The notes: a model not told the origin generated them from the letters alone. 32,568 nt of DNA from an uncultured Candidatus Saccharibacteria bacterium (GCA_964523595.1 CAZFZO010000001.1:5633-38200); one strand, 5' to 3'; positions 1 through 15,136 are shown, numbered from the stretch's first letter. A program made the numbers and translations.

Positions 1-699
1 ATCCCAGCGCCAATCAAAATAGAACGGATTCAAAAGTTGACCATTAACCGAACAAGAAGAACCAAGCACGGCGGCAGTGTTTTGAACGTCGAGCGTTAAA
101 AACTTTGGCGCCGAACTTCCCGATCCAGTTCCGATTTGGACCGAAGAAGCAGAGATGTCAGTTTTCAACAGGCTACCATATACGTTTTGCGAAGTTATAG
201 CAAAACCCGTCGCAAGCACCTGCTGACGCGGCGTCATCGACTCAAAGTTGGCGGCGTGACAAGTTGAAGTTGAGTTATTTACCTCAACATTTAAATAAAT
301 TGTATCCGTCGAATAAAAGTTATAATCAAGCGTATCCGCCTGACCAATTGTCGCACTAAAAACACCGTTTACTACGCTTAGCGTCGAAGAAGCGGGAGTG
401 CCTGATGGCCAGACCCTACTCCCTCCAAGGGCAGAGTCATATAATGAAAAACGGAAGCAGTAATTCGTACCACTGCCACCCAAGGCGTTGCCTGACGTAT
501 CAGTTAATCGCCCCTGATAGGAAAGTTTATTCGGCACGCCAACCGCAGCATCAGACGAAGGCGAAAGCCAACGCCCCACCACTAACACGCTCGATAAAAC
601 AAAGGTAAGCGCAACCTCAAGCCCGGTCAACAAAACAAGCGCAAATTTTCTACGCTTCAACTTCGAATCAAATTGTATTTTGTTATCCGTAATAGACAT
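1..699 (-). CDS. Surface/secreted protein, N-terminal part (gene runs off the window start)
   Basis: Absent from the supplied ORF track because it has no stop in the window. Hand translation from the ATG at 699-697 stays open for 233 codons to position 1: MSITDNKIQFDSKLKRRKFALVLLTGLEVALTFVLSSVLVVGRWLSPSSDAAVGVPNKLSYQGRLTDTSGNALGGSGTNYCFRFSLYDS... This gives a basic N-terminus, one hydrophobic helix and a Ser/Thr/Gly/Asn-rich body. There is a 3-nt gap to the stop of the 703-1332 gene. Confidence 0.6.
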   Translation of the reverse strand, partial: MSITDNKIQFDSKLKRRKFALVLLTGLEVALTFVLSSVLVVGRWLSPSSDAAVGVPNKLSYQGRLTDTSGNALGGSGTNYCFRFSLYDSALGGSRVWPSGTPASSTLSVVNGVFSATIGQADTLDYNFYSTDTIYLNVEVNNSTSTCHAANFESMTPRQQVLATGFAITSQNVYGSLLKTDISASSVQIGTGSGSSAPKFLTLDVQNTAAVLGSSCSVNGQLLNPFYFDWRWD

Positions 700-702
700 A
701 CA

Positions 703-1332
703 TTAAAACTTGAGCTGCTCAACAATTTCATCCACTTTCTCATACGCCTCCTCAAACTGCTTTTGTAGCTTTTCTTCTTTAGCGAGTTCACTCGCGCCAA
801 AATGATAATTATAGTGCACCGCTAATTCGAGCGGTGAAGGAATTTTAAGAAATATAACCTCCTGCGAGCGACCACCTTCGCGATCAAGCACAAATTGAAT
901 GCCGAAATCGGAAACGTTTCCCTTCTTTAAAATCTTTTCATCAACAAAATGCTTAAACAAATAATCAGTTGGTATCATCTTTTCAAAACGATACATAATA
1001 TCAAAATTGAAGCCAATCGCATTCAACTGTGCTTGTTTAAACAATTTAGGATAAATACGCACCGCCTCATGTATAAGTATAGACGAACCAGGAGCTGCTT
1101 TCGAGTCATCATCAATACGCAAGCGCACATTTTCAAGCGTTACCCGAAGTTTGAGCCTCGGGACTACCATGAATTTTGAACGAATCACTGGGTCGTCAAC
1201 GAATTGCGAGCCAGCCGAATCAGTAGACCCAAACAAATCTACAAAATCCCGATTTTCAGGAGCAGTAGTTTTTTGCGGATCAATCACGAAAATAATGTTC
1301 GATTGGGAAAGTGACTTAAAATTAGGCTTCAT
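703..1332 (-). CDS. Hypothetical soluble protein (209 aa), no recognisable motif
   Basis: ATG-initiated ORF packed tightly between neighbours (19 nt and 3 nt spacers). No hydrophobic segment and no catalytic motif recognised. Confidence 0.6.
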   Translation of the reverse strand: MKPNFKSLSQSNIIFVIDPQKTTAPENRDFVDLFGSTDSAGSQFVDDPVIRSKFMVVPRLKLRVTLENVRLRIDDDSKAAPGSSILIHEAVRIYPKLFKQAQLNAIGFNFDIMYRFEKMIPTDYLFKHFVDEKILKKGNVSDFGIQFVLDREGGRSQEVIFLKIPSPLELAVHYNYHFGASELAKEEKLQKQFEEAYEKVDEIVEQLKF

Positions 1333-1351
1333 AGTATCAATATGACAATAC

Positions 1352-2995
1352 TTATTCTACTTGAAACGGAACAACTGATGAAATTGGAATCCAAGAACCA
1401 CTCTCTGTCTGACTCGCCACAAGCAAGTGATAAGTACCAGCCTTCAAACTGCCAATACTCTCAACAACCGGTCCAAGCGCAACAGAGAAAGCTCCATTAC
1501 AAATAGATGCGGAGTTGTAAATGGCAGAACCAGGGCGCTGCTGATAGTCATTCGCTCCACGAAACACGAGCACTACATAATAATCTTCATTACAAGTTCC
1601 ATCGAGCACAATATCTTCTCGCTCGGCATCATAACTTACCGAAACACGACCACTCAAATCCTTAAGGCGCGCTCGTGCTTCAGTCACGTCCTGCCAGGGA
1701 AGAGAAATAATGCTTGGAATTGATCGACTCGTAAGAAGACGCAGGGCACGCGAAGGAATATATACAAATGGTGACTGTGAAGGATTTAAAAGTGGCAATT
1801 GTTCAGGCAAAAGAGACGGGACCTCCTCTAAAACGCTAGTAGTAGTAGCTGGTTCTGATTCAATTCCAGGTAGAGAGCTTGATGCTGAAGACGAAGTCGT
1901 TTGAATCGGAGCAACTTCAGTAGTTCGCGGAACCTCGGTATACGAAGCCTCAAGAGAAACACCATCAAGATATACCTCATAACGTGTATCAAGCGTCAGC
2001 ACGTCGCTATCAATGCGAATATGAAGCTTGGAAAGATCAGCCCAACTCGAAATCTCTGGACCATGCGTTGTCGACGAAGCGCCGTCAATAACCGGAGTCT
2101 GAAGCACCGGAATTTGATACACTAAATTAGCAAAACTCTTCTCATTAAACATACCAAGGTCATACCAAACCGATCCATCAAATGAGTACGAGATACGCCC
2201 AAGCGGCAACGAACTCTGCACGATATCAATCGCCTGCACACTATCACTCGCCTCTTGCGCTCGAGCAACCGGAACAAGCCAAGAGGATTGCGGACCATTT
2301 TCAGCTGGTGCAGTTGGTGGCACAACAGGAGAGTTAGCATCTTGCTGTGTCGAATTCACGCTAGGAACAGGATTCTCAACAGGAGCTTCAGCTGGAGGTG
2401 GTGTTACCGACTGCTCAGGTAAAACAATCGGCTCACTTGGAGCTACTGGAGTATCCGTCGCTGGGCTACCAGACGAAGAACCGTCTGGATTTAGAATAAG
2501 TTGAACTCCGCCATCAATCGGAGCTGGGTTCTCCCCCTCTGGATTAGCAGAAATCGAAACTTTTTTCACTCCCAAGGAAAAAGACAAGCTCAACGCCTCA
2601 ATAGCAGTTCCCTCTGGGGCTTGAATACCCGAAAAGGTATTACAATCAATACTCTGAACTCCACCAACAAACAATGCCGAGTTAGCCGGCGTAAATTCAG
2701 CTACATCAGCACCAGCGGTTAGTTCAGGTACTCCTTGAGCATTTTGTGCGTTCTGCCACCCACCCACGCAAGTAGCTGGATGAAAAACAAGCGCAGAACC
2801 ACGCGCAGTAAATGAATAGATTAAAAAAGCAGCAACAAATAAAACTCCTAACTCAATTGGATGTAACTTAGTAAACTCAAATATACGACTAGACCACTCG
2901 CTATATTTTTTTGTTTTCCCAAGGAAAACAACCCGCCCCTGTCCGCGCTTACTCTCACGTGAAGTTGTTAGTTTTTTTAAAAAGGGAAATTTCAT
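1352..2995 (-). CDS. Membrane-anchored extracellular protein with Pro/Ser/Thr-rich linker
   Basis: The track ORF starts at a TTG at 3019, and the first ATG is at 2995 (MKFPFLKK...). It has one hydrophobic helix (LGVLFVAAFLIYSF) and a proline-rich low-complexity stretch (PVAPSEPIVLPEQSVTPPPAEAPVENPVPS...PVVPPTAPAENGP). The C-terminal part is Cys-containing and looks beta-rich. The start codon is uncertain. Confidence 0.65.
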   Translation of the reverse strand: MKFPFLKKLTTSRESKRGQGRVVFLGKTKKYSEWSSRIFEFTKLHPIELGVLFVAAFLIYSFTARGSALVFHPATCVGGWQNAQNAQGVPELTAGADVAEFTPANSALFVGGVQSIDCNTFSGIQAPEGTAIEALSLSFSLGVKKVSISANPEGENPAPIDGGVQLILNPDGSSSGSPATDTPVAPSEPIVLPEQSVTPPPAEAPVENPVPSVNSTQQDANSPVVPPTAPAENGPQSSWLVPVARAQEASDSVQAIDIVQSSLPLGRISYSFDGSVWYDLGMFNEKSFANLVYQIPVLQTPVIDGASSTTHGPEISSWADLSKLHIRIDSDVLTLDTRYEVYLDGVSLEASYTEVPRTTEVAPIQTTSSSASSSLPGIESEPATTTSVLEEVPSLLPEQLPLLNPSQSPFVYIPSRALRLLTSRSIPSIISLPWQDVTEARARLKDLSGRVSVSYDAEREDIVLDGTCNEDYYVVLVFRGANDYQQRPGSAIYNSASICNGAFSVALGPVVESIGSLKAGTYHLLVASQTESGSWIPISSVVPFQVE

Positions 2996-3034
2996 CACAC
3001 TATGTATTAAGTTTACCAAATACCAGAGAAAAGA

Positions 3035-4915
3035 CTATGGTTGATGCGAAGCCTGTGAGAGCTGCTGTTTCATTTTCTCGATATCTGAACTCTGCACCTC
3101 CTTTAATTTAGGTTTATCATTGCGCGGATGAAGCTCTGAGAGAGAAACTTCCTTTTTGGGTGCACCGCCCCCACCCCGAGACTGCTGATGAGGCCGCTGC
3201 TCATTGCGCGACTGTGAAGAATGCACAGGACGAGCTTGCTTTGGAGCCTCAAACTCAATACCAATCGAAGCAAGCGAAGAAACACCCTTATCCATATGCT
3301 CCTGCGTTGGCTTTTTAATCGGCTTCACTGGCTTGAGCTCGCCCTTCTGAATCTTATTCATGCAATCAGAGCAATACACTGGCCTGCCAGGCGTTGGCTT
3401 AAATGGCAATTTCGCCTCCTTGCCACACGAAGAACACACCGCGATAGTCATCTCATCAGTTGATCGCTCACTTGAACGAGCAGTTGGGGCACTCGCTGGT
3501 CGCGCAGCATGCGAACTCGCTGACGTCGAAGGAGCTGATGGAGTAGTAGTATCAATATTCGATCGTCGCGGGGCATCATCTTCAGCCTCTACGCCAGTAC
3601 CACTCGCCCAACGATTAATCGCCGCCTCAATATCCTCTCTGCGACGCGCATAACGCTCACGAGAAGCAGTAATAATCTCATCGAGCGTAGCCGAACCACC
3701 CCGGCTCTTAAATGGCGCGATAGTCGCGGCAGAAAATGGACGTGCCGTAAACCCATCAACCATTAATTTAAGATAGATGTGATAGTTCGGAAGGTTCACG
3801 ATATCTTCAACGGTAAATTCAGGAGCGAACTCATTCTCTAAAAACTCCGCATCGGCCGCACCAACACGAAATACCACCATCGTACCAGTGTTACCAAATA
3901 CCGCATCGCGCACCTTTGTCGAAACATCAGTTACGAGCTGACCAACGTACTGGTGAGCGATAATCAAATCTAAGCGATACTTACGCGCTTCAGAGAGAAC
4001 GCTCGCAAACGAATCAGTCGCAAAGTTTTGAAACTCGTCAACATACAAATAAAAATCTTTACGCTCATCCTCAGGAATACGTACGCGCTCCATAGCCGAA
4101 AGCTGAATCTTCGTAATAAGCATCGCACCTAAAAGCGCTGAGTTGTCTTCGCCGATACGCCCCTTCGACACGTTAACCAAAAAGATTTTTCGACTATTCA
4201 TAATGTCGAAAATATCAATCGTACTCGTCGTCTGTCCAACTACGTTACGAATAATCGACGTCGACAAAAACTGTCCAACTTTGTTTTGAATTGGAGCGAT
4301 AGCCTCTGAGCGAAACTTATCCTGCCACTCCTCATACTCATTAACCCAAAACGCTCGCACCACCGGGTCTTTTACGTTATTTACAATACGCTGACGATAG
4401 TTTTTATCGACAAGTAAACGCGGAATACCCAAAAGCGTAGTATTCGGAGTATCAAGCAACGCTAAAATCGCATTGTTCATAATATACTCCATACGTGCAC
4501 TCCACACGTTACTCCAAATCTTAGTAAAGATACCCATAAGTCCAGAAGCAACTAAGTGTTTGTAGCGTGGATCTGGGAGCTCGAGTACATTAAAACCCAT
4601 GTGATAGTCGATATCAGCTGGATTAAAATACACCACATCTTTAATGCGTTCTCGTGGAATCATCGAAAGCACTCCCTCAATCAACTCACCGTGTGGATCA
4701 ACCACACACAGCCCATCACCATTCGCAATATCTTGTGCGATTAAATTATGCAAAAAAGCAGACTTACCCGTACCCGTCTTCCCAATCACATACATGTGTT
4801 GACGACGGTCCTTTCGTTTTATACCAAAAAGTTTCGACGCACCTCGAAAATCAGTGCGAGCAAAATACACAACATTCTGGCTATTATCTGGCGCAGGTTG
4901 AGATGACTGGTGCAT
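3035..4915 (-). CDS. TraD/TrwB/VirD4-like (type IV coupling-protein-like) P-loop ATPase, soluble, with C-terminal CxxC-x17-CxxC zinc ribbon and basic low-complexity tail
   Basis: FGIKRKDRRQHMYVIGKTGTGKS (Walker A). FYLYVDEFQNF (Walker B). ARKYRLDLIIAHQYVGQL motif. No N-terminal TM segment. CSSC-GKEAKLPFKPTPGRPVY-CSDC is encoded at 3362-3436. Confidence 0.8.
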   Translation of the reverse strand: MHQSSQPAPDNSQNVVYFARTDFRGASKLFGIKRKDRRQHMYVIGKTGTGKSAFLHNLIAQDIANGDGLCVVDPHGELIEGVLSMIPRERIKDVVYFNPADIDYHMGFNVLELPDPRYKHLVASGLMGIFTKIWSNVWSARMEYIMNNAILALLDTPNTTLLGIPRLLVDKNYRQRIVNNVKDPVVRAFWVNEYEEWQDKFRSEAIAPIQNKVGQFLSTSIIRNVVGQTTSTIDIFDIMNSRKIFLVNVSKGRIGEDNSALLGAMLITKIQLSAMERVRIPEDERKDFYLYVDEFQNFATDSFASVLSEARKYRLDLIIAHQYVGQLVTDVSTKVRDAVFGNTGTMVVFRVGAADAEFLENEFAPEFTVEDIVNLPNYHIYLKLMVDGFTARPFSAATIAPFKSRGGSATLDEIITASRERYARRREDIEAAINRWASGTGVEAEDDAPRRSNIDTTTPSAPSTSASSHAARPASAPTARSSERSTDEMTIAVCSSCGKEAKLPFKPTPGRPVYCSDCMNKIQKGELKPVKPIKKPTQEHMDKGVSSLASIGIEFEAPKQARPVHSSQSRNEQRPHQQSRGGGGAPKKEVSLSELHPRNDKPKLKEVQSSDIEKMKQQLSQASHQP

Positions 4916-4938
4916 AGATATAATAAGTTACCTCTATT

Positions 4939-4966
4939 AGTATAGCGTAAAATAACCACGCCTCAA
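4939..4966 (-). promoter_or_regulatory. Candidate sigma70-type promoter for the second ATPase gene (TTGAGG-16-TATACT)
   Basis: On the minus strand, TTGAGG is at 4966-4961 and TATACT at 4944-4939, with a 16-nt spacer. It lies in the only sizeable gap (66 nt) inside the operon. Confidence 0.35.
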
Positions 4967-4981
4967 AAACTAAGATAAAGC

Positions 4982-6370
4982 CTAAAAAGAAGGCGGAGGA
5001 ACTGGTACGCGCCCACTCACCGCAGGGTGGCAGTATCTACCACGAAATGTTTTCATAATCTTCTCGCGAGCCGAAGGAGTATTTGGAGGCAGCACCTTGA
5101 GCGTTTCTGCTGAAAATGGATCGCACGGCTCACCGTCAATAACCATCTTAATATAAAACTCACGCTTCCCGAGGTTGATCATATCCTTAACCTTAAATAC
5201 AGGCGCAAGCTCACTCTCAAGTCGCTCCGCATCCTCTCCTCCAATACGAAACACAATTATCGTACCCACGTTACCAAAAATCGACGAGCGAAAATGCTCA
5301 ATAATCTGACCAAGGTACTGATGCGCGATCGTAAATGAGATGTGATACTTTTTTCCCTCAAATAACAAATTCTCAAACGTCTCCGTTATGAGATGATGGA
5401 ACTCATCGACATACACATTAAAATCTTTACGGGTCGCCTCGGGCTGATTCAGGCGTGCCATACCGGCTTGCTTGAGCTTAATCAAAAAGAGCCCGCCAAA
5501 AAAACTTGAGTTCTCTTTACCCAACTTTCCCTTATTAAGATTGATGAGTACGATTTTCTGACTTTTGAGCCAATCATTCACATCAATCGCATTCTCTTGT
5601 TTGGTAAAAATCGAACGAAGAAGTGGATCGGAAAAAAATTGAGCCAGTTTATTTACTAGTGGAGCAACCGCCTCCGCCTCGACTTTTTCCGTTTTCGTAG
5701 ACCAAGCCACAAACTCATCACGCCAAAACCGTTGCACCATCTCATCAGTGATGTGCGGGATAACTTCAGCGCGATACGCGGCATCAGTAAGCATCGAGAT
5801 CATACCGCGCATCGTCGCCTGCGGATAATCAAGAAGCGCGAGCACGATAAAACGAAACACGTGCTCGATATGAGCATTCCAACTCGCACCAAATTGCGAC
5901 TCAAGAATCTCGATAAGCCCTTGAGCAAACTGATGCCTAAACGCAGGCTCGATGCCTGACAACGGGTTAAAGGCCACCGGACAATCAATATCAGATGGAT
6001 CAATAACCAAAACATCTTCAGCCCGACCTTCAGGAATAAAATCCAAAATATCATTAATCAGATCTCCGTGTTGATCAAACAAGCAAACCCCCCTGCCCGC
6101 GCTAATATCCTGTCGAATCATAAGCTCCATAAGCTTCGTCTTGCCCGTGCCACTCTTTCCGATCATGTATACGTTTCGCCGGCGATCAACACGCTTAATA
6201 CCAAACACATACTTCTTCTCTTCGAGTGCCGCAACATAGTTCGTCTTTCCAATAAACGAAGTCTCGACTGTATCAACCTTACCCAGAACTGGAAGCTGCG
6301 CCGGAGGAGGCGCATACTTTACCGTCTGTAATTTTACTGCCGCGGACGCCGCCGGTTGTGGATCAGCCAT
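4982..6370 (-). CDS. TraD/TrwB/VirD4-like P-loop ATPase, soluble paralog of the downstream gene
   Basis: FGIKRVDRRRNVYMIGKSGTGKT (Walker A). FNVYVDEFHHL (Walker B). GKKYHISFTIAHQYLGQI. Collinear similarity to the 3035-4915 product along the whole core. No TM segment and no zinc ribbon. Confidence 0.8.
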   Translation of the reverse strand: MADPQPAASAAVKLQTVKYAPPPAQLPVLGKVDTVETSFIGKTNYVAALEEKKYVFGIKRVDRRRNVYMIGKSGTGKTKLMELMIRQDISAGRGVCLFDQHGDLINDILDFIPEGRAEDVLVIDPSDIDCPVAFNPLSGIEPAFRHQFAQGLIEILESQFGASWNAHIEHVFRFIVLALLDYPQATMRGMISMLTDAAYRAEVIPHITDEMVQRFWRDEFVAWSTKTEKVEAEAVAPLVNKLAQFFSDPLLRSIFTKQENAIDVNDWLKSQKIVLINLNKGKLGKENSSFFGGLFLIKLKQAGMARLNQPEATRKDFNVYVDEFHHLITETFENLLFEGKKYHISFTIAHQYLGQIIEHFRSSIFGNVGTIIVFRIGGEDAERLESELAPVFKVKDMINLGKREFYIKMVIDGEPCDPFSAETLKVLPPNTPSAREKIMKTFRGRYCHPAVSGRVPVPPPSF

Positions 6371-6379
6371 AAAAATAAA

Positions 6380-7030
6380 CTAGAAAGCATCTAGCTCCAT
6401 TAAGAAATCGCGAAACGCCTGAAGCGAGTTTTGCGCATCTTGTTGAGACACGCCAAATCCAGGCGTGTGAACTAAATCATTACGCAAGCGATGCGCCCTC
6501 CAGACTCGCTCCAAGCTCTTGAGCTCACCTGGTTGAATATTACTCAATCTATCCGCCATCGTCTCACCCGCGTACTCGGCGTGCTTTAAAAAATAATCAA
6601 CAAGTGTATCAGCCTCAATAATAGCTAATCGCATATTTTCAGGAGTCCCCGTCCGAAACCGAGCGACTAAATTATTCCAGTGGAGTAAAATCGTCTTATC
6701 TTTTTTCAACTTACGTTTCACCACAGCCACGCTCGGCGTCTCAAACATACTCACCTTAGGAAACGTATGCCAAGACTTCACGCCGCAGTAAATAATAAGA
6801 GCTAATAAGATGATATCGATAATCACAAAACTTGGGACAACCCACTGATGCCACCAAGCTGCCGCAGCAACTCCAGCGGTACCAAGCACATCAGTATTAA
6901 CTAGCTGATCGGCGGTATCAAAACCCGAACGTAAAACCGGCGACAAGATGTACGCTGCGATACCAATAATAACCACACCGACAACAACGGGTTCAAACCA
7001 ACCTGGACCTGATGCGTGTTCGTCAGCCAT
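6380..7030 (-). CDS. Polytopic membrane protein with cytoplasmic helical C-terminal domain carrying an Rx4H motif
   Basis: Hydrophobic segments VVVGVVIIGIAAYIL, GTAGVAAAAWW and FVIIDIILLALIIYCGV. The C-terminal domain reads ...ERVWRAHRLRNDLVHTPGFGVSQQDAQNSLQAFRDFL. There is a 5-nt gap to the upstream gene and a 9-nt gap to the downstream gene. Confidence 0.65.
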   Translation of the reverse strand: MADEHASGPGWFEPVVVGVVIIGIAAYILSPVLRSGFDTADQLVNTDVLGTAGVAAAAWWHQWVVPSFVIIDIILLALIIYCGVKSWHTFPKVSMFETPSVAVVKRKLKKDKTILLHWNNLVARFRTGTPENMRLAIIEADTLVDYFLKHAEYAGETMADRLSNIQPGELKSLERVWRAHRLRNDLVHTPGFGVSQQDAQNSLQAFRDFLMELDAF

Positions 7031-7035
7031 AGTAG

Positions 7036-8328
7036 TTATAAGAATTTATCCAATACCTTTTCATCTGCATAAATCGGTAACCCAGCCGGAGCACCAAACT
7101 TCTTGCTCTCAACACGCTTAGTGTGTGGCGCAGTTAAAACGATACCTGTTGGTGGGTGGAACAACGTCGCGAGCGACTCAGTATTTAACTCAAACTCGGT
7201 TGAGTGAAAATTAAAGTTAAGTGGGTGTGAAGAGATAAGTTTGCCAAAAAACGACTCGATACCAGCTTCACGGTGATGATAGTACCCCCAAAGTCGCTGC
7301 TTACGTAACTTTTTACGGATTCCAGTAAATAAATACGGGAACTTATACGGACTCGCTCCTGTCATCATGCCAAAGTTCTGCCCAAACGCATTAAGATCGC
7401 CAGCAGAGTACTGGTTAAACGCACTAATAATACCGCGGCGAGCAAACGAGTCATAAAAATCAACCTTCGGCCCCATATAGACGAAACGAACTGCACACGC
7501 AAATGGCGGCTTAGAAAAATTACGCTCTACCGCATCAAGTATATCACCCTGACGCTTCGACTTCGGAATCATCATTGGAAAACCACCCTCCTTGTCAGAC
7601 TCAACTTTTCTCGGCTCGCGCAACTTATCAATATCAGCCTCAAAATGCTTAATCCACGACTCGTGATCGTGTGGAATAATGTTAAACTGTAATCCCAAAA
7701 ACTCCTTCTCCTTGACTTGTCCAAGCACCTCCAAAAAGCTAGAGATCGGATCAAACTGCAGTTGCTCATCGGGAGTTTCAAAATCCAAATAACTCTTAAT
7801 CGGATACATCGAAGGCTTTTTAAGCGTCATCTCTGTTCCCCACATCTCATACCCCTGCGCACGAATATCCGCATATGTATGCGGCAGTGAGTGCATATAA
7901 TCATGCACCTCATTGAGCTCAACATCAGGATACGCAGAATAAAAAGCCGCCTCAACTAGTGGACGTAGGTGCTCTTCGCAGCGAATATAAAAATGAATCT
8001 GCCCACCAAAACTCACCATCTCAAGAGTGAACCAATACGTAACCTCACCACCGTTATACCGATCACGCCAAGTGCTTGGCGAGTTTCGAAGCTGATGAAG
8101 TGATTGAAGTACCTGATCCATTCCACGCGGACTCTTCTCGAGTAGCCGCGGAATAATAATTTCTAAAAAGACCCACTTCGTATCTTCGATAAAAAGTTGT
8201 TGCCTCCAAAAAAGATAAGCTGAACGAAAAAGCGGAAAAAGAATAAAAAACAAAACAACCGGCCAAATATTTAAAAGAAAAGCGGCGGCATACCCCCAGA
8301 GCTGTTGTGCAAAATCAAAAAAACTCAT
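7036..8328 (-). CDS. N-terminally membrane-anchored protein (430 aa), first gene of the operon, function unknown
   Basis: The ATG ORF has an N-terminal hydrophobic hairpin (AAAFLLNIWPVVLFFILFPLF) followed by a roughly 380-aa soluble domain. No motif recognised. Confidence 0.7.
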   Translation of the reverse strand: MSFFDFAQQLWGYAAAFLLNIWPVVLFFILFPLFRSAYLFWRQQLFIEDTKWVFLEIIIPRLLEKSPRGMDQVLQSLHQLRNSPSTWRDRYNGGEVTYWFTLEMVSFGGQIHFYIRCEEHLRPLVEAAFYSAYPDVELNEVHDYMHSLPHTYADIRAQGYEMWGTEMTLKKPSMYPIKSYLDFETPDEQLQFDPISSFLEVLGQVKEKEFLGLQFNIIPHDHESWIKHFEADIDKLREPRKVESDKEGGFPMMIPKSKRQGDILDAVERNFSKPPFACAVRFVYMGPKVDFYDSFARRGIISAFNQYSAGDLNAFGQNFGMMTGASPYKFPYLFTGIRKKLRKQRLWGYYHHREAGIESFFGKLISSHPLNFNFHSTEFELNTESLATLFHPPTGIVLTAPHTKRVESKKFGAPAGLPIYADEKVLDKFL

Positions 8329-8341
8329 ACGTTCTGTATTA

Positions 8342-8370
8342 AGTATATCGCCCTTTGCCTATTGCCTCAA
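8342..8370 (-). promoter_or_regulatory. Candidate sigma70-type promoter of the 8328->1 operon (TTGAGG-17-TATACT)
   Basis: On the minus strand, TTGAGG is at 8370-8365 and TATACT at 8347-8342, with a 17-nt spacer. It sits directly after the upstream terminator hairpin. Confidence 0.4.
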
Positions 8371-8371
8371 G

Positions 8372-8398
8372 AATCAAAACGAGCCCCGGAGGGCTCGC
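8372..8398 (-). terminator. Rho-independent terminator after the sigma-r4/HARE-HTH gene
   Basis: The 7-bp GC-rich stem CGAGCCC/GGGCTCG (8380-8397) has a 4-nt loop. On the minus strand it is followed by TTTTGATT. Confidence 0.6.
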
Positions 8399-8406
8399 TT
8401 TAATTC

Positions 8407-9462
8407 TTATGCGCTTTTCAGCTTGTACTTACCTTCAGCAGTGCGCTCGAAATACTTCTTATTCTGGAGGTTAAACAAGATAGTGTTTTCCTTGAAGATA
8501 CGGCGCTTGAGGACTTCAGCCATAATATCTTTTGGCTTCATCGGTCCAGACTTCTTTAAGATATGAACAAGCACTTCACGAATTGTTCCTGCAGGAAAAT
8601 CATCATTCTCACGTAGACCGTAGATGCCACGGCCAACTAAGATAAAGCGCTTATCCTTGATGAGTTCGTTGTGAATCGTCTGGGTGTTAGTCTTTTTCTC
8701 ATTACGCATTCTGCGGATCTCCTCGGCGATCTCATTGAAGTGCATCGGACGATTCGCCTTCTTGAGAATCAAGTAAATCCAGTCACGAGAAACCTTTGGG
8801 TTGACCTCTTCCCACTCCGTGAGACCGAAATCACCAAACTTGTTTTTGCCGAACTTTTTAGAAATCGTAAGATAGTGACGAGCAACCTTCTCTTCAACTT
8901 TGTGAAGTTTCGTTACCTCACGGAAGAAGTCATCAAACTTCTTGCTGTGGAGAGTTTCCTGCTTCTTATCCTTGAGCTGCTTAATGAGCGTATCAAGGAA
9001 ATCAAGTGCACGCTTCTGGTGCTCTGCGGAAAGATGCCAGTGCGAGAAAAGCTCCTCGTCTTCGCGGTGATAGGTTAGTGCTCCGGAGAGCTCGAGCAAG
9101 AAACGAACTTGATTACCAAAACTCTTATTGAGATCTGATGGGTGAGCAAAAATCTTTATCTCCTCAAGCAAATTGCCCTCATGGCGAACGCCAGCAGAAT
9201 CTTTGAGTCGGTCAACAGATGTACTAACAATTTCATTCAAATGACCACCCTTCGCCTTTTTACCTACCTCTTTTAAAGCGAGTGCTTCGATCTGACGAAT
9301 ACGCTCACGCGTAACGCCAAACTGCTTACCAAGTTCGGCCAACGTCATCTCGTCGGTCGTATCAAGTCCATAACGCTTAACTAAAACTTTGCGCTGACGC
9401 GGATCAAGATCAGAGAACAACTCTTCTATGATTACGTTTGTAGTTTTTGACGGATTCGCCAT
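8407..9462 (-). CDS. Sigma-70 region-4-like HTH protein fused to HARE-HTH/winged-helix domains (no region 2 visible)
   Basis: The N-terminus RQRKVLVKRYGLDTTDEMTLAELGKQFGVTRERIRQIEALALKEV is a classic sigma region 4.2 signature. The C-terminus RPMHFNEIAEEIRR...LIKDKRFILVGRGIYGL is HARE-HTH-like, followed by a second winged-helix-like repeat. Confidence 0.75.
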   Translation of the reverse strand: MANPSKTTNVIIEELFSDLDPRQRKVLVKRYGLDTTDEMTLAELGKQFGVTRERIRQIEALALKEVGKKAKGGHLNEIVSTSVDRLKDSAGVRHEGNLLEEIKIFAHPSDLNKSFGNQVRFLLELSGALTYHREDEELFSHWHLSAEHQKRALDFLDTLIKQLKDKKQETLHSKKFDDFFREVTKLHKVEEKVARHYLTISKKFGKNKFGDFGLTEWEEVNPKVSRDWIYLILKKANRPMHFNEIAEEIRRMRNEKKTNTQTIHNELIKDKRFILVGRGIYGLRENDDFPAGTIREVLVHILKKSGPMKPKDIMAEVLKRRIFKENTILFNLQNKKYFERTAEGKYKLKSA

Positions 9463-12374: not shown

Positions 12375-12414
12375 GAAATAAAAATGGGCCCCGACAACGC
12401 TGTTGTTGGGGCCC
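12375..12414 (-). terminator. Rho-independent terminator after the HD-like gene
   Basis: A 13-bp stem GGGCCCCGACAAC/GTTGTTGGGGCCC (12386-12414, one G-U pair) is followed on the minus strand by ATTTTTATTT. Confidence 0.6.
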
Positions 12415-12445
12415 GACGCCTCGCCTTTCGGCAAGACGACCAGCT

Positions 12446-13189
12446 CTACGAAACGACGACACCCGAGAAGATCTGCGGATACGGCACGAGTCCGTAGTCC
12501 TCCCGACACTTGAGCACCTGCGCGACGTAGTCACGCAGGAATCGGAAGTAGGGACGTCCGATCTCGATCCCATAGGAACTCCGCAGACGGTACCGCGGGT
12601 CCGCATCAGGATGCTCACTATCCCACTTCGTGGACATGTAATGAAGATCCCAGAGCACCGACCCAGGGGCGAAGTAGCTCGCGTTCGGATCGCCAAGCAG
12701 GTACACCGGATCCACGTCGAAGATGTCGGGCTGGAACTGCCCAGCCCGCATCACCACGTCCGGCATGATGTTCACCAGACGATCGGCGTCCTGGAGAATC
12801 ATCAACACAACGTGCCCATCGATGTTCGGCCCCGCATGACGCACGACCGCGTCGACGACCGCATCCCGCTCCTCCTCGTTGAGGTCGGTTGCAAGCAGCC
12901 ACTCGAGCACGAGTGCCCGAACCTGCTCGGCAGGCACGTCCTTGCGCCCACACTGGAGCCGCTTCTGAAGAACCCGGTCCGCATTGTGACACAGACCGGC
13001 GACTCCGGCGACCAAGGCACGACGAGCACCAGAGTCATCCCGCCCGTGACAGGCGAGCTCGAGCGCCATCTGCCCCACTCGCAACGGGTGGTCGAAACTG
13101 TGCCCACTCGCCACGAGTCCGCACGCATCATGGCTCGCCTTGATGGCGGCCGTCAGCGCCGGAAACAGCTCCCAGATACGCGTTTGCAT
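12446..13189 (-). CDS. HD-superfamily-like metal-dependent phosphohydrolase (divergent), high G+C
   Basis: GHSFDHPLRV ... LCHNADRV ... LQDADRLV resembles the H...HD...D pattern of HD domains, but with HNAD in place of HD. ATG start with an AAGAGG Shine-Dalgarno. Confidence 0.55.
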   Translation of the reverse strand: MQTRIWELFPALTAAIKASHDACGLVASGHSFDHPLRVGQMALELACHGRDDSGARRALVAGVAGLCHNADRVLQKRLQCGRKDVPAEQVRALVLEWLLATDLNEEERDAVVDAVVRHAGPNIDGHVVLMILQDADRLVNIMPDVVMRAGQFQPDIFDVDPVYLLGDPNASYFAPGSVLWDLHYMSTKWDSEHPDADPRYRLRSSYGIEIGRPYFRFLRDYVAQVLKCREDYGLVPYPQIFSGVVVS

Positions 13190-13240
13190 CGAAATACCTC
13201 TTTAGAAAAGCTCCACAGCCGATTGCTAAGGAGTAAATAC

Positions 13241-13269
13241 ATTATAGCATAAAAACTAGATAAAGTCAA
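13241..13269 (-). promoter_or_regulatory. Near-consensus sigma70 promoter for the HD-like gene (TTGACT-17-TATAAT)
   Basis: On the minus strand, TTGACT is at 13269-13264 and TATAAT at 13246-13241, with an exact 17-nt spacer. It lies in an AT-rich spacer inside the GC-rich patch. Confidence 0.55.
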
Positions 13270-13283
13270 TAATGAATACTTGT

Positions 13284-13320
13284 AATAAAAAGGCGCTCGA
13301 CGATGCTCGTCAAAGCGCCT
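13284..13320 (-). terminator. Rho-independent terminator after the Fis-HTH gene
   Basis: The AGGCGCT/AGCGCCT outer stem and GACGA/TCGTC inner stem (13291-13320) are followed on the minus strand by TTTTTATT. Confidence 0.6.
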
Positions 13321-14135: not shown

Positions 14136-14258
14136 CCCATAAACCAGAGTCGCTACTGCGACACGGTTTAGGGTAGGCATGAACCGTGCTTTGCTCTGGT
14201 TCATGCCACCTCTCCCTAAAAAATCTTTTGCCACTGATACTTACTCCTACATTCAAAA

Positions 14259-14287
14259 TTGACACTTTATTTATAAAATCGTAGGGT
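14259..14287 (+). promoter_or_regulatory. Candidate promoter (TTGACA-17-TAGGGT) plus leader hairpin for the 14344 gene
   Basis: TTGACA at 14259-14264 and TAGGGT at 14282-14287. Downstream are the hairpin GTCAGCAGGG-TTT-CCCGCTGAC (14294-14315) and a strong AAGGAGG Shine-Dalgarno at 14329-14335. Confidence 0.4.
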
Positions 14288-14343
14288 CAAGAGGTCAGCA
14301 GGGTTTCCCGCTGACATTCTCACGACGAAAGGAGGGTGTAGGT

Positions 14344-15084
14344 ATGACCACACCCAAAAACGCTAGCGAACTCTTCTTCCGCAAGGAGCCGCCGACCGAT
14401 GCCGAGTGGCTCGATCTCATCGAGACACTCCGAACGATCATTACGCCGCTCCTCGAAGGAATTCGGCTGGAAACACTCAGCAAGATCCAGCTATGGAAAA
14501 GCGACCACGCCGGCACGATCCATTCTCGACTCGGAGAGGCTCCGCCGACCATCGGAGAAGGACAGCCTGAACGCTCCGACAGCAATAGCAATATCGGCGT
14601 CCGCGGACTTTTCTGGCTGGAAAAGATTGACGCTTCGTACGGCCAAACCGGATACGTCGAGCGCGGTAACCCGCCCTTCCGTATCCTATCTGGACAAAGC
14701 GATAATCCGATCAAGCAGGTTCGCGAGTACGTCTTCTGGGGTCTGAGTCGGCACGGCCAGTGGATTCTGGTTGAGCTCGAAGCCAAACTAGACCAGCGAG
14801 AGTTTTCGATCTATCGCAATCGGTTTTTCCGAGCAACGCGCGTCAAGACAACGCTCGTCAACGGTCCGATCGAGATCGTTAACGCGATGGCAAGAATGAA
14901 CTACAACTGGCATCGCGGCCTACCCGGCATCTGGCTCGCACTAACCCAGATGATCGAAAACATCTACAACTACGCCTGCGGTAGGTTCAAGAACGCCGAA
15001 GAGGCGAGAGATGCGATGCGTAGCGAAGTCACGCTCATCAGAGGCGCCAACGCAGCCAGCTGGCGCATACAAGACCTGTTCTAG
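14344..15084 (+). CDS. Hypothetical protein (246 aa), high G+C, no recognisable domain
   Basis: ATG with a strong Shine-Dalgarno and its own terminator. No TM segment and no motif recognised. Confidence 0.6.
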   Translation: MTTPKNASELFFRKEPPTDAEWLDLIETLRTIITPLLEGIRLETLSKIQLWKSDHAGTIHSRLGEAPPTIGEGQPERSDSNSNIGVRGLFWLEKIDASYGQTGYVERGNPPFRILSGQSDNPIKQVREYVFWGLSRHGQWILVELEAKLDQREFSIYRNRFFRATRVKTTLVNGPIEIVNAMARMNYNWHRGLPGIWLALTQMIENIYNYACGRFKNAEEARDAMRSEVTLIRGANAASWRIQDLF

Positions 15085-15092
15085 CTCCCCGT

Positions 15093-15130
15093 CCCGCCAA
15101 AGACTTCGGTCTGCGGCGGGCTTTTTATTT
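15093..15130 (+). terminator. Rho-independent terminator
   Basis: CCCGCC..AGAC-TTCG-GTCT..GGCGGG (15093-15120) is followed by CTTTTTATTT. Confidence 0.7.
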
Positions 15131-15136
15131 CTGCAT

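Follow-up and report, generated by a model that had tools for sequence, protein, structure and literature searches.

A probable split type IV coupling protein in a conserved chromosomal gene module of Patescibacteria

The DNA analyzed here is a stretch of 32,568 nt from an uncultured Candidatus Saccharibacteria bacterium (GCA_964523595.1 CAZFZO010000001.1:5633-38200), referred to as the window. It begins with seven co-directional open reading frames (ORFs) on the minus strand, separated in their reading direction by 5, 9, 66, 15, 19 and 3 nt (Table 1). These encode a 430-aa protein with the domain of unknown function DUF8128 (PF26449), a 216-aa protein with a tentatively assigned HEPN-like domain, two paralogous ATPases (A and B) and three further proteins. 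The remaining window is chromosomal housekeeping DNA, with mraW, ftsI, a Mur ligase gene, dnaB, cysS, corA, recR, grpE-dnaK-dnaJ, secD-secF and two tRNA genes. A preliminary description, made from the sequence alone, saw in the seven genes an operon for what may be an uncharacterised envelope translocation module. In the following we argue that the DUF8128 protein and ATPase A are very probably the two halves of a type IV coupling protein (T4CP) of the monoderm type, encoded by separate genes.

Table 1 Features of the module and its immediate surroundings; positions are nucleotides counted from the first letter of the window
Feature	Position	Strand	Remark
DUF8128 (PF26449) protein gene, 430 aa	7036..8328	-	probable anchor and N-terminal half of split T4CP
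Near-invariant DUF8128 C-terminal tail, aa 383-421	7066..7182	-	LATLFHPP..APH.KRVES.K.G.PAGLPI; aligns with fused-T4CP linker
216-aa anchored protein gene (tentatively HEPN-like)	6380..7030	-	RNDLVH motif at nt 6467-6484
ATPase A gene, 462 aa, predicted soluble T4CP motor	4982..6370	-	N-terminal YAPPPAQLPVLG at nt 6281-6316
Second promoter-like site, TTGAGG-N16-TATACT	4939..4966	-	inside 66-nt gap 5' of ATPase B gene
ATPase B gene, 626 aa, predicted paralogous soluble T4CP motor	3035..4915	-	zinc finger at aa 488-521, nt 3353-3454
First promoter-like site, TTGAGG-N17-TATACT	8342..8370	-	5' of DUF8128 gene
Terminator-like GC-rich hairpin and T-run	8380..8397	.	between delta-like gene and DUF8128 gene
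351-aa sigma-70 region 4 and HARE-HTH protein gene (RNA polymerase delta-like)	8407..9462	-	
Three lineage-specific co-directional genes outside the conserved module	1..3019	-	
Anchored Pro-rich protein gene	1352-3019	-	555 aa from TTG start; 548 aa called in relative
209-aa soluble protein gene	703-1332	-	
Start of 486-aa anchored Ser/Thr-rich protein gene	1-699	-	runs off window

Judged by profile scores, both ATPases are of the T4CP type and are neither FtsK nor VirB4 proteins. With the curated Pfam gathering score as the cut-off, TrwB_AAD_bind (20.5 bits) is matched at 40 bits by ATPase A and 48.3 bits by ATPase B, and TraG-D_C (22 bits) at 22.9 and 28.6 bits, which bears out their earlier likening to TrwB, TraD and VirD4. 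The TrwB_AAD_bind alignments cover profile positions 15-311 (ATPase A) and 11-313 (ATPase B) of 387 and span the all-alpha-domain region. T4SS-DNA_transf (20.1 bits) is matched by ATPase B, at 26.3 bits, and not by ATPase A. DUF87 (23.2 bits) scores more weakly than the T4CP models in both, with 30 bits in ATPase B and a value below the cut-off, 21.9 bits, in ATPase A. FtsK_SpoIIIE (24 bits) finds nothing in ATPase A and only the P-loop of ATPase B (18.3 bits), and the VirB4-type model AAA_10 reaches 13 bits in ATPase B; FtsK and HerA models are thus not the best-scoring ones for either protein. The NCBIfam scan gave only sub-threshold matches, to TraD and to CD1115-type VirD4. In blastp, both ATPases matched a T4CP at E 1e-62 to 1e-68, compared with 0.02 for the VirB4 of the same gene cluster. 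Among solved structures, the best sequence match of ATPase B was TrwB (E ~1e-6, P-loop region only), and searches of the PDB by sequence and profile returned no significant match for ATPase A.

The motifs quoted in the preliminary description are present in both proteins. Walker A is GKSGTGKT at aa 71 of ATPase A and GKTGTGKS at aa 45 of ATPase B, within the contexts GIKRVDRRRNVYMIGKSGTGKT and GIKRKDRRQHMYVIGKTGTGKS, respectively; Walker B (YVDEF, at aa 319 and aa 289) follows at a distance of ~245 aa, and IAHQY.GQ is found in both. A Kyte-Doolittle scan detected no hydrophobic segment in either ATPase, confirming that both lack a membrane anchor of their own. The two share 38.6% identity. ATPase A is under strong constraint (mean column identity 83%) and carries near its N-terminus a linker-like stretch with invariant P21, P22, P23, L26, P27 and G30, a motif that is missing from ATPase B. 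The latter has a low-complexity C-terminal tail and a CxxC-x17-CxxC treble-clef zinc finger (aa 488-521; zf_Tbcl_2, 58 bits), in which three of the four cysteines (C494, C497 and C515) are invariant or near-invariant among orthologues.

The idea that these ATPases replace FtsK was dropped, given the sub-threshold FtsK profile scores and the discussion of FtsK for Saccharibacteria TM7x in the literature searched. As a separate observation, the best plasmid hit came from Sulfitobacter mediterraneus (plasmid NZ_CP081110.1; locus L085, 7953-9140): a soluble T4CP-like ATPase of 395 aa that stands alone and shares 37-40% identity with each of the window ATPases. It lies among transposase genes on this alphaproteobacterial plasmid, with no DUF8128 partner annotated, and may reflect horizontal transfer of an anchor-less motor.

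The missing anchor appears to be encoded separately, by the DUF8128 gene. As previously proposed, the 430-aa protein is N-anchored, with one hydrophobic segment at aa 10-41. PF26449 is precomputed on a 98%-identical protein and on nearly all of its 120 listed homologues, one of which is named 'DUF8128 domain-containing protein' in UniRef; we found no mention of DUF8128 or PF26449 in the literature searched. The connection to coupling proteins came through plasmids. When 72,556 plasmids were searched with ATPase B by tblastn, 538 records matched, among them one carrying an 812-aa T4CP of Embleya sp. NBC_00896 (WP_331738717.1; 34.6% identity, E 7e-61) in which the ATPase domain begins only at ~aa 415. 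Its gene lies in a conjugation cluster encoding a TrbL-like protein, PrgI (equivalent to VirB3), a VirB4-like ATPase (P-loop_TraG, AAA_10, TraC_F_IV), a replication-relaxation protein and an NlpC/P60 protein. When residues 1-410 of the Embleya T4CP served as the query, 100 actinobacterial proteins were returned, and many of them combine PF26449 and PF10412 in one chain, with or without DUF87, TraG-D_C or T4SS-DNA_transf (for example, P0183, P0202, P0218, P0241, P0257 and P0281).

Profile-profile comparison (hhalign) against an alignment of 18 such fused actinobacterial proteins placed DUF8128 residues 155-421 on fused residues 160-387 (Prob 91.6%, E 8e-7) and ATPase A residues 20-445 on fused residues 377-793 (Prob 100%, E 2e-51). 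Since they align to successive stretches of the fused protein, the DUF8128 protein and ATPase A are collinear halves of it. At the junction, the DUF8128 tail (GAPAGLPIYA) and the N-terminus of ATPase A (YAPPPAQLPVLG) each align with the fused linker, VAPPPAIPxPG. A second fused relative, the 833-aa T4CP of Bacillus methanolicus plasmid pBM69 (WP_003349917.1, annotated as a 'DUF87' protein), aligns through its N-terminal region with DUF8128 residues 95-240 (Prob 94.9%, E 4.5e-8). Neighbours of its gene are a replication-relaxation gene, genes for conjugal transfer and one for an ATP-binding protein of 860 aa, whose size and position alone make it VirB4-like. The N-terminal domain of a Bradyrhizobium plasmid T4CP was also considered as a DUF8128 relative and ruled out as unrelated.

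The membrane topology agrees as well. The Embleya T4CP has a single membrane helix (aa 34-56) followed by the basic run RTRLRRRR, and the DUF8128 protein likewise has one helix and a basic run. By this comparison the DUF8128 domain is predicted to face the cytoplasm, because the fused ATPase must be cytoplasmic. Taken together, these alignments make it very probable that the DUF8128 protein and ATPase A are the halves of a split T4CP. The suggestion that the upstream membrane proteins supply the tether therefore holds for the 430-aa protein, whose domain is fused ahead of the ATPase in monoderm conjugative T4CPs. The statement that the locus contains no other parts of a type IV secretion system (T4SS) was wrong in one respect, in that this same protein would be the N-terminal part of the T4CP family.

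An AlphaFold2 model of the 430-aa protein, built on a 33-sequence alignment (mean predicted local distance difference test score, pLDDT, 85; predicted template modelling score, pTM, 0.81), consists of a 47-residue N-terminal helix, alpha/beta domains and the conserved C-terminal tail, which is modelled at low confidence (pLDDT low at 398-420). This tail (aa 383-421), with invariant columns A387, H391, P393, T399, P401, H402, R405, E407, G416 and I419, is a likely docking peptide for the ATPase. When the model was compared with the PDB by Foldseek, the R388 T4SS supplied all of the top 13 hits, as TrwK/VirB4 chains (E 9e-6 to 4e-4, prob 1.0), with a modest template modelling (TM) score of 0.29-0.38 and the matched portion of VirB4 not reported; the next hits had E >7e-3. 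No sequence link between DUF8128 and VirB4 was found by Pfam, by PDB sequence and profile searches or by hhalign of the N-terminal domains, and when the fused T4CPs were compared with the Embleya VirB4 by hhalign, only the ATPase cores aligned. Judging from the predicted fold, this T4CP family may have retained an N-terminal domain of the VirB4 kind.

The distribution of the module was followed by a pattern scan of 185,579 species genomes, based on the DUF8128 alignment, which found relatives in 331 genomes; 80 loci were fetched, and the counts below, which rest on tblastn and all-against-all clustering of ORFs, refer to 79 species-level loci. A further search with the divergent DUF8128 of locus L005 added one genome only. 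The closest relatives of the module belong to Paceibacteria/Parcubacteria-type Patescibacteria, including Liptonbacteria, Jorgensenbacteria, Kaiserbacteria and Minisyncoccia. Relative to DUF8128, secD occupies position -3 in 56/79 loci, secF position -2 in 50/79 and the RNA polymerase delta-like gene (sigma-r4/HARE-HTH) position -1 in 67/79; downstream, the 216-aa family follows at position +1 in 69/79 and an ATPase A orthologue (~60% identical) at position +2 in 63/79. ATPase B is more mobile: its orthologues (57-75% identical) lie adjacent or 1-6 kb downstream in ~16/79 loci, and in four (L005, L010, L028 and L067) one stands in place of ATPase A. The conserved unit is three genes and a mobile fourth, not seven. 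Gene order is thus kept in relatives for the first three genes, with the fourth in some genomes, so that the loss of gene order named as refuting in the preliminary description was not seen for this core; the last three genes fall outside it as lineage-specific.

No fusion of DUF8128 with an ATPase was seen among the 79 Patescibacteria loci, and in L005, which was checked individually, the genes are separate. Since the fused form is found in two other phyla, it is more economical to assume fission in the lineage of the Patescibacteria than fusion. A side observation concerns what comes after ATPase A. In 51/79 loci a tandem array of one to five paralogous genes comes after it, often headed by cutA and coding for a CxxC-rich cytoplasmic protein of ~550-600 aa (127 genes in all); examples are found in L008 (14169-15932 and 15.9-17.7 kb), L018, L022, L027, L047, L049, L050, L066 and L071, among others. 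The N-terminus of this protein weakly matches zf_Tbcl (E 0.005), a model related by name to that of the ATPase B finger, and the family is missing from the window.

Look-ups of two window proteins by exact sequence matched no contig, and the surroundings were read in a close relative of the window. This relative, L001, is a 320-kb contig with a 98%-identical 430-aa protein, in which the module is followed by genes for proteins of 548, 209, 486 and 242 aa and by a class-A beta-lactamase-like gene. Reading this contig beyond the point that corresponds to position 1 revealed no VirB4, relaxase or other T4SS gene, so the reported absence of such genes from the neighbourhood extends past the window itself. 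A NurA-like neighbour gene was likewise found neither in the window nor in L001.

These downstream genes decide the fate of the proposal that all seven genes build one envelope translocation apparatus, with the anchored surface proteins as its cargo or structural parts. The genes run in one direction with short gaps (3-19 nt), two of the downstream proteins have a single N-terminal anchor and a Pro-rich or Ser/Thr-rich composition that suggests an outward-facing location, and the last of them weakly matches the N-terminal domain of Bdellovibrio mosaic adhesive trimer fibre proteins (27 bits, below the cut-off of 60). However, the four downstream genes (548, 209, 486 and 242 aa) lack homologues in or close to the module of the 79 other loci, by tblastn or by clustering, and elsewhere unrelated genes occupy their place, such as cutA, the tandem Cys-rich proteins or efp. 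They also diverge far faster than the core: the 548-aa and 209-aa proteins are 75% and 81% identical to their counterparts in L001, compared with 92-98% for the core genes, and the blastn alignment to L001 ends at window position 1929. Since the module in addition contains no channel-forming polytopic protein, we regard a seven-gene apparatus as very unlikely, and the role of cargo or apparatus given to the surface proteins finds no support. The broader label of an uncharacterised envelope translocation module fares no better, in that both membrane proteins are anchored proteins with predicted cytoplasmic domains and the closest relatives of the module are ordinary conjugative coupling proteins.

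Some details of the downstream genes are recorded for their own sake. The anchored Pro-rich protein had been described as 547 aa long; the anchor and the composition were correct, and the length is either 555 or 548 aa, depending on the start (Table 1). The genes for this protein and the 209-aa protein are fast-evolving and possibly encode surface proteins. The 486-aa protein, whose complete gene lies at 17633-19093 of L001, may be an adhesin or fibre. At a distance from the module, two ~0.9-kb stretches of the window (12384-13284 and 14140-15136) that flank an HTH_8 gene and tRNA-Lys are missing from L001. Their G+C content is 0.52-0.55, versus ~0.46 for the rest, and the ORFs that they contain, on either strand, match no Pfam family; a possible origin is strain-specific insertion beside a tRNA gene.

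The co-directional arrangement and the close spacing of the seven ORFs were described correctly; their assignment to one operon with one promoter is not supported. The pattern TTGAGG-N16/17-TATACT occurs exactly twice in the 32.6-kb window, against 0.01 occurrences expected by chance: once 5' of DUF8128, where a GC-rich hairpin and T-run directly after the stop of the upstream gene precede it, and a second time 5' of ATPase B. Since the same pair of hexamers occurs at only these two sites, two transcription units are suggested, one of DUF8128, the 216-aa gene and ATPase A, and the other of ATPase B and what follows. The promoter assignment stays at the consensus level because the motif is not conserved 5' of DUF8128 in relatives (15/69, even with a relaxed pattern). 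The identity of the hexamers could also mean that the two units are co-regulated. The 351-aa protein encoded upstream matches Sigma70_r4 (54.8 bits), HARE-HTH (39.7 bits) and, above its cut-off, NCBIfam RNAP_delt_lowGC; it is probably a separate housekeeping gene. Such a joining of sigma-70 region 4 with HARE-HTH is an unusual fusion, and it is kept beside secDF and the T4CP module in 67 of the loci.

The second gene of the conserved unit encodes a protein for which the evidence is thinner. Its earlier description as polytopic was overstated: the window protein has two hydrophobic segments (aa 8-37 and 60-88), most homologues have a single membrane helix, and only the last ~150 residues of the family are conserved. 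As basic residues come after the helix, the C-terminal domain is predicted to be cytoplasmic. Invariant residues include A140, D141, D145, G155, H180, R183 and N184, with H188 conserved in at least 90% of members. They lie in a pattern of AIIEADxLxD followed by WRAHRLRNDLVH, the latter part of which contains RNDLVH, an R-x4-H motif of the kind typical of HEPN domains. In the predicted structure (overall pLDDT 85), helices 112-126, 130-150, 173-188 and 196-212, all with pLDDT >94, form a four-helix bundle (aa ~112-212). Foldseek returned HEPN 2hsb as the top hit (prob 0.97, E 0.2), followed by several HEPN toxins and Csm6. Pfam matches are weak: HEPN_Swt1 in 5/38 members (best E 0.0024), and DUF4145 and Hypoth_Ymh in one or two. 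A PDB sequence search found nothing for this family. This evidence is weak, and the protein may carry a HEPN-like four-helix domain.

No counterpart of the 216-aa protein is present in the fused T4CPs or in the Embleya cluster, where the XF1762 protein was considered as a relative and ruled out as unrelated. A HMMER search of 1.84 billion cluster representatives gave 3,289 family members at E <=1e-3, and the best 150 of these are 112-291 aa long. The family is broader than the T4CP context, as distant members sit in gatCAB operons of other Patescibacteria. For example, one lies directly after gatA (Amidase) and before gatB in L089 (6001-6417; gatC-gatA-[X]-gatB), and others directly follow gatA in L090 (5938-6495) and L091 (1067-1624), where the downstream gene is Cpn10 or unidentified. 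This hints at an RNA- or tRNA-related role for the wider family. The 216-aa protein would be a Patescibacteria-specific accessory, possibly RNA- or nucleotide-directed, with its gene inserted between those of the two T4CP halves.

A nuclease-like domain next to ATPases of the FtsK/HerA superfamily might also be taken for an anti-phage defence system, or the locus for a mobile-element module such as a decayed conjugative element. The ATPases match PADLOC mad8 (40-50 bits) and, weakly, HerA, DndH and PtuA, and the upstream gene matches MzaA through its sigma region 4. Yet DUF8128 and the 216-aa protein have no match in PADLOC, and the locus contains no relaxase, integrase or other defence component. 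Its housekeeping synteny is fixed in 60-70 of the 79 species (secD-secF and the delta-like gene upstream; dnaK/dnaJ, dnaB, mraW and ftsI nearby), the conservation of ATPase A is consistent with vertical inheritance under strong purifying selection, and no relatives of DUF8128 were found in 2.9 million viral contigs. Neither a patchy distribution varying between strains nor integrases or repeats at the flanks were seen in other genomes. The defence reading was rejected on synteny and conservation, and the mobile-element reading on these together with the missing relaxase and integrase and the viral contigs; we consider it very unlikely that either is correct.

The account that we favour for the module as a whole, and hold to be reasonably likely, is that of a chromosomal, vertically inherited split T4CP serving the T4SS of the phylum. 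The DUF8128 protein would sit in the membrane with its domain in the cytoplasm, and its invariant C-terminal tail would recruit the ATPase and assemble it into a hexamer at the membrane, restoring a functional coupling protein. ATPase B, a paralogue, would have lost the linker motif and acquired a disordered tail bearing a zinc ribbon. It would probably dock on the same DUF8128 anchor or form mixed rings, as an alternative motor for binding a substrate or adaptor, with the tail and zinc ribbon making that contact in the manner of the C-terminal tails of TraD and DotL (PMC12857230). The module could then act as substrate receptor and translocation motor for a relaxase-less, MPF-FATA-derived T4SS, expected elsewhere in the genome (PMC12102498). 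Homology, domain collinearity, topology and conserved synteny are observed at the sequence level; physical assembly, the direction of fission, partnership with the T4SS and the substrate are inferred from them.

Several points weigh against this account. The hhalign probability for the DUF8128 half is good, not overwhelming, and residues 1 to ~95 of the DUF8128 protein have no aligned counterpart beyond the family. The model gives the 216-aa protein no role. No T4SS gene (VirB4, VirB6 or PrgI) and no relaxase gene lies within ~10 kb in L001 or in the 79 loci. T4CP homologues occur in more Patescibacteria genomes (2,918/3,035) than VirB4 (2,417) (PMC12102498), and in published data for Southlakia the T4CP homologue is non-essential while the T4SS is essential. 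Because of these last two observations an obligatory role in the T4SS is disfavoured, and we put forward the function of a T4SS coupling protein only tentatively, at somewhat less than an even chance.

The same observations would suit a motor of identical split architecture that has been exapted to a T4SS-independent, membrane-tethered task on nucleic acid, such as pulling in DNA through ComEC or dealing with host RNA after its import, in which case the HEPN-like protein would be the processing nuclease. Like the T4CP homologue, comEC is non-essential in Southlakia, and in at least eight related loci comEC follows ATPase B within 2-5 genes. The R-x4-H motif of the 216-aa protein and the zinc-ribbon tail of ATPase B would find a place in such a scheme, and uptake of host RNA by an unresolved mechanism has been described for a cultured Patescibacterium in a 2026 preprint (10.64898/2026.06.21.733656). 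On the other side, housekeeping genes (efp, mnmA, trmD) break the comEC linkage, which possibly reflects mere gene order in a small genome and is missing from the window; the HEPN assignment is statistically weak; and the distant members of the 216-aa family in gatCAB operons are not accompanied by T4CPs. An exapted motor is therefore rather unlikely in our estimation, but it is the alternative to which most weight is given.

The comEC neighbourhood itself is seen, for example, in L011 (14737-21042), and also in L019, L028, L042, L054, L061, L064 and L078, as ATPase B, efp, mnmA or trmD, and then comEC, which is split into a Competence/DUF4131 gene and a metallo-beta-lactamase gene. It could be a functional link to DNA uptake or plain conserved gene order. 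A bolder and distinctly improbable version would make the split T4CP, the HEPN-like partner and the zinc-ribbon ATPase the cytoplasmic engine of nucleic-acid import, in which the motor would reel host RNA or DNA in via the T4SS conduit or ComEC; at the membrane, the incoming nucleic acid would be cut by the HEPN-like domain. If true, it would supply nucleotides to organisms unable to make them and explain the host-RNA uptake reported in 2026.

The split T4CP that we favour would account for the anchor-less coupling ATPases found across Patescibacteria. These ultrasmall bacteria make up a large share of bacterial diversity and depend on a T4SS for epibiotic growth, and two gaps in what is known of them meet here: a T4SS cluster reported without a recognisable coupling protein, and about two orphan VirD4-like genes per genome that had no known context. 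Orphan T4CP homologues, to which the ATPases belong, have been counted in earlier publications. What appears to be undescribed in the literature searched is the split architecture and DUF8128 as a T4CP N-terminal domain common with actinobacterial and Bacillus conjugative T4CPs, as well as the VirB4-like predicted fold of DUF8128, the inserted HEPN-like gene and the class-wide synteny. A role would thereby be assigned to a domain of unknown function, and the orphan ATPases would share the monoderm conjugation ancestry that has been proposed for the T4SS. In practical terms, the work delimits three or four genes as a compact unit for genetic study in tractable Saccharibacteria and adds an unexpected, possibly HEPN-like accessory protein, and the VirB4-like fold match bears on the divergence of the two T4SS ATPases.

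The nearest known systems are the plasmid T4CPs of Embleya sp. NBC_00896 and pBM69. Common to these DUF8128-type monoderm T4CPs and the window are one membrane helix, DUF8128, a Pro-rich linker and a T4CP motor with Walker A, Walker B and AHQ motifs, the ATPases being 28-35% identical. The monoderm proteins are single polypeptides, borne on plasmids and adjoining VirB4-like and relaxase-type genes; PrgI, TrbL-like and NlpC/P60 genes are present in the Embleya cluster only, and the pBM69 genes are annotated as conjugal transfer proteins. The replication-relaxation genes beside both T4CPs presumably resemble the pLS20/MOB-L type relaxase family. In the window, by contrast, two separate genes flank the HEPN-like gene, the motor occurs twice (A and B), the location is chromosomal and no T4SS or relaxase gene is nearby.

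TrwB of R388, VirD4 and TraD belong to the same ATPase family as the window ATPases; at the sequence level, TrwB is matched over the P-loop region only. In these canonical T4CPs, unlike the window proteins, the motor chain itself includes an N-terminal membrane domain of two helices, and a DUF8128 domain is absent. VirB4 is a paralogue of the T4CP whose N-terminal domain mediates contacts with the membrane and with VirB3/VirB8 (PMC12857230). The likeness of its R388 member TrwK to DUF8128 is confined to the predicted fold (TM 0.29-0.38), with no similarity at the sequence level, and the window ATPases are not VirB4-type. A precedent for a coupling ATPase made of several proteins is the Legionella DotL type IV coupling complex (T4CC), with accessory subunits on the C-terminal tail (PMC12857230); its accessory proteins are unrelated to those of the window, and DotL, in contrast to the window ATPases, retains its own membrane anchor.

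Among Patescibacteria, Quinonero-Coronel et al. 2025 counted 5,713 VirD4-type genes in the 2,918 genomes that have them, about two per genome, of which 148 lie near virB4, and proposed that these homologues may have been exapted (PMC12102498). The window ATPases are the same genes as these orphan homologues. As far as read, neither that paper nor Wang et al. 2023 (PMC10633639), who described a Southlakia T4SS cluster without a recognisable coupling protein or relaxase, describes the DUF8128 partner, the split architecture, the 216-aa gene or the secDF-linked synteny. About two orphan homologues per genome, almost never near virB4, fit the pair of ATPases A and B (PMC12102498). The T4SS of Patescibacteria is encoded elsewhere in the genome, and its VirB4 is nested within the monoderm MPF-FATA class; the MPF-FATA ancestry proposed for it on this basis matches the monoderm affinity of the split T4CP (PMC12102498).

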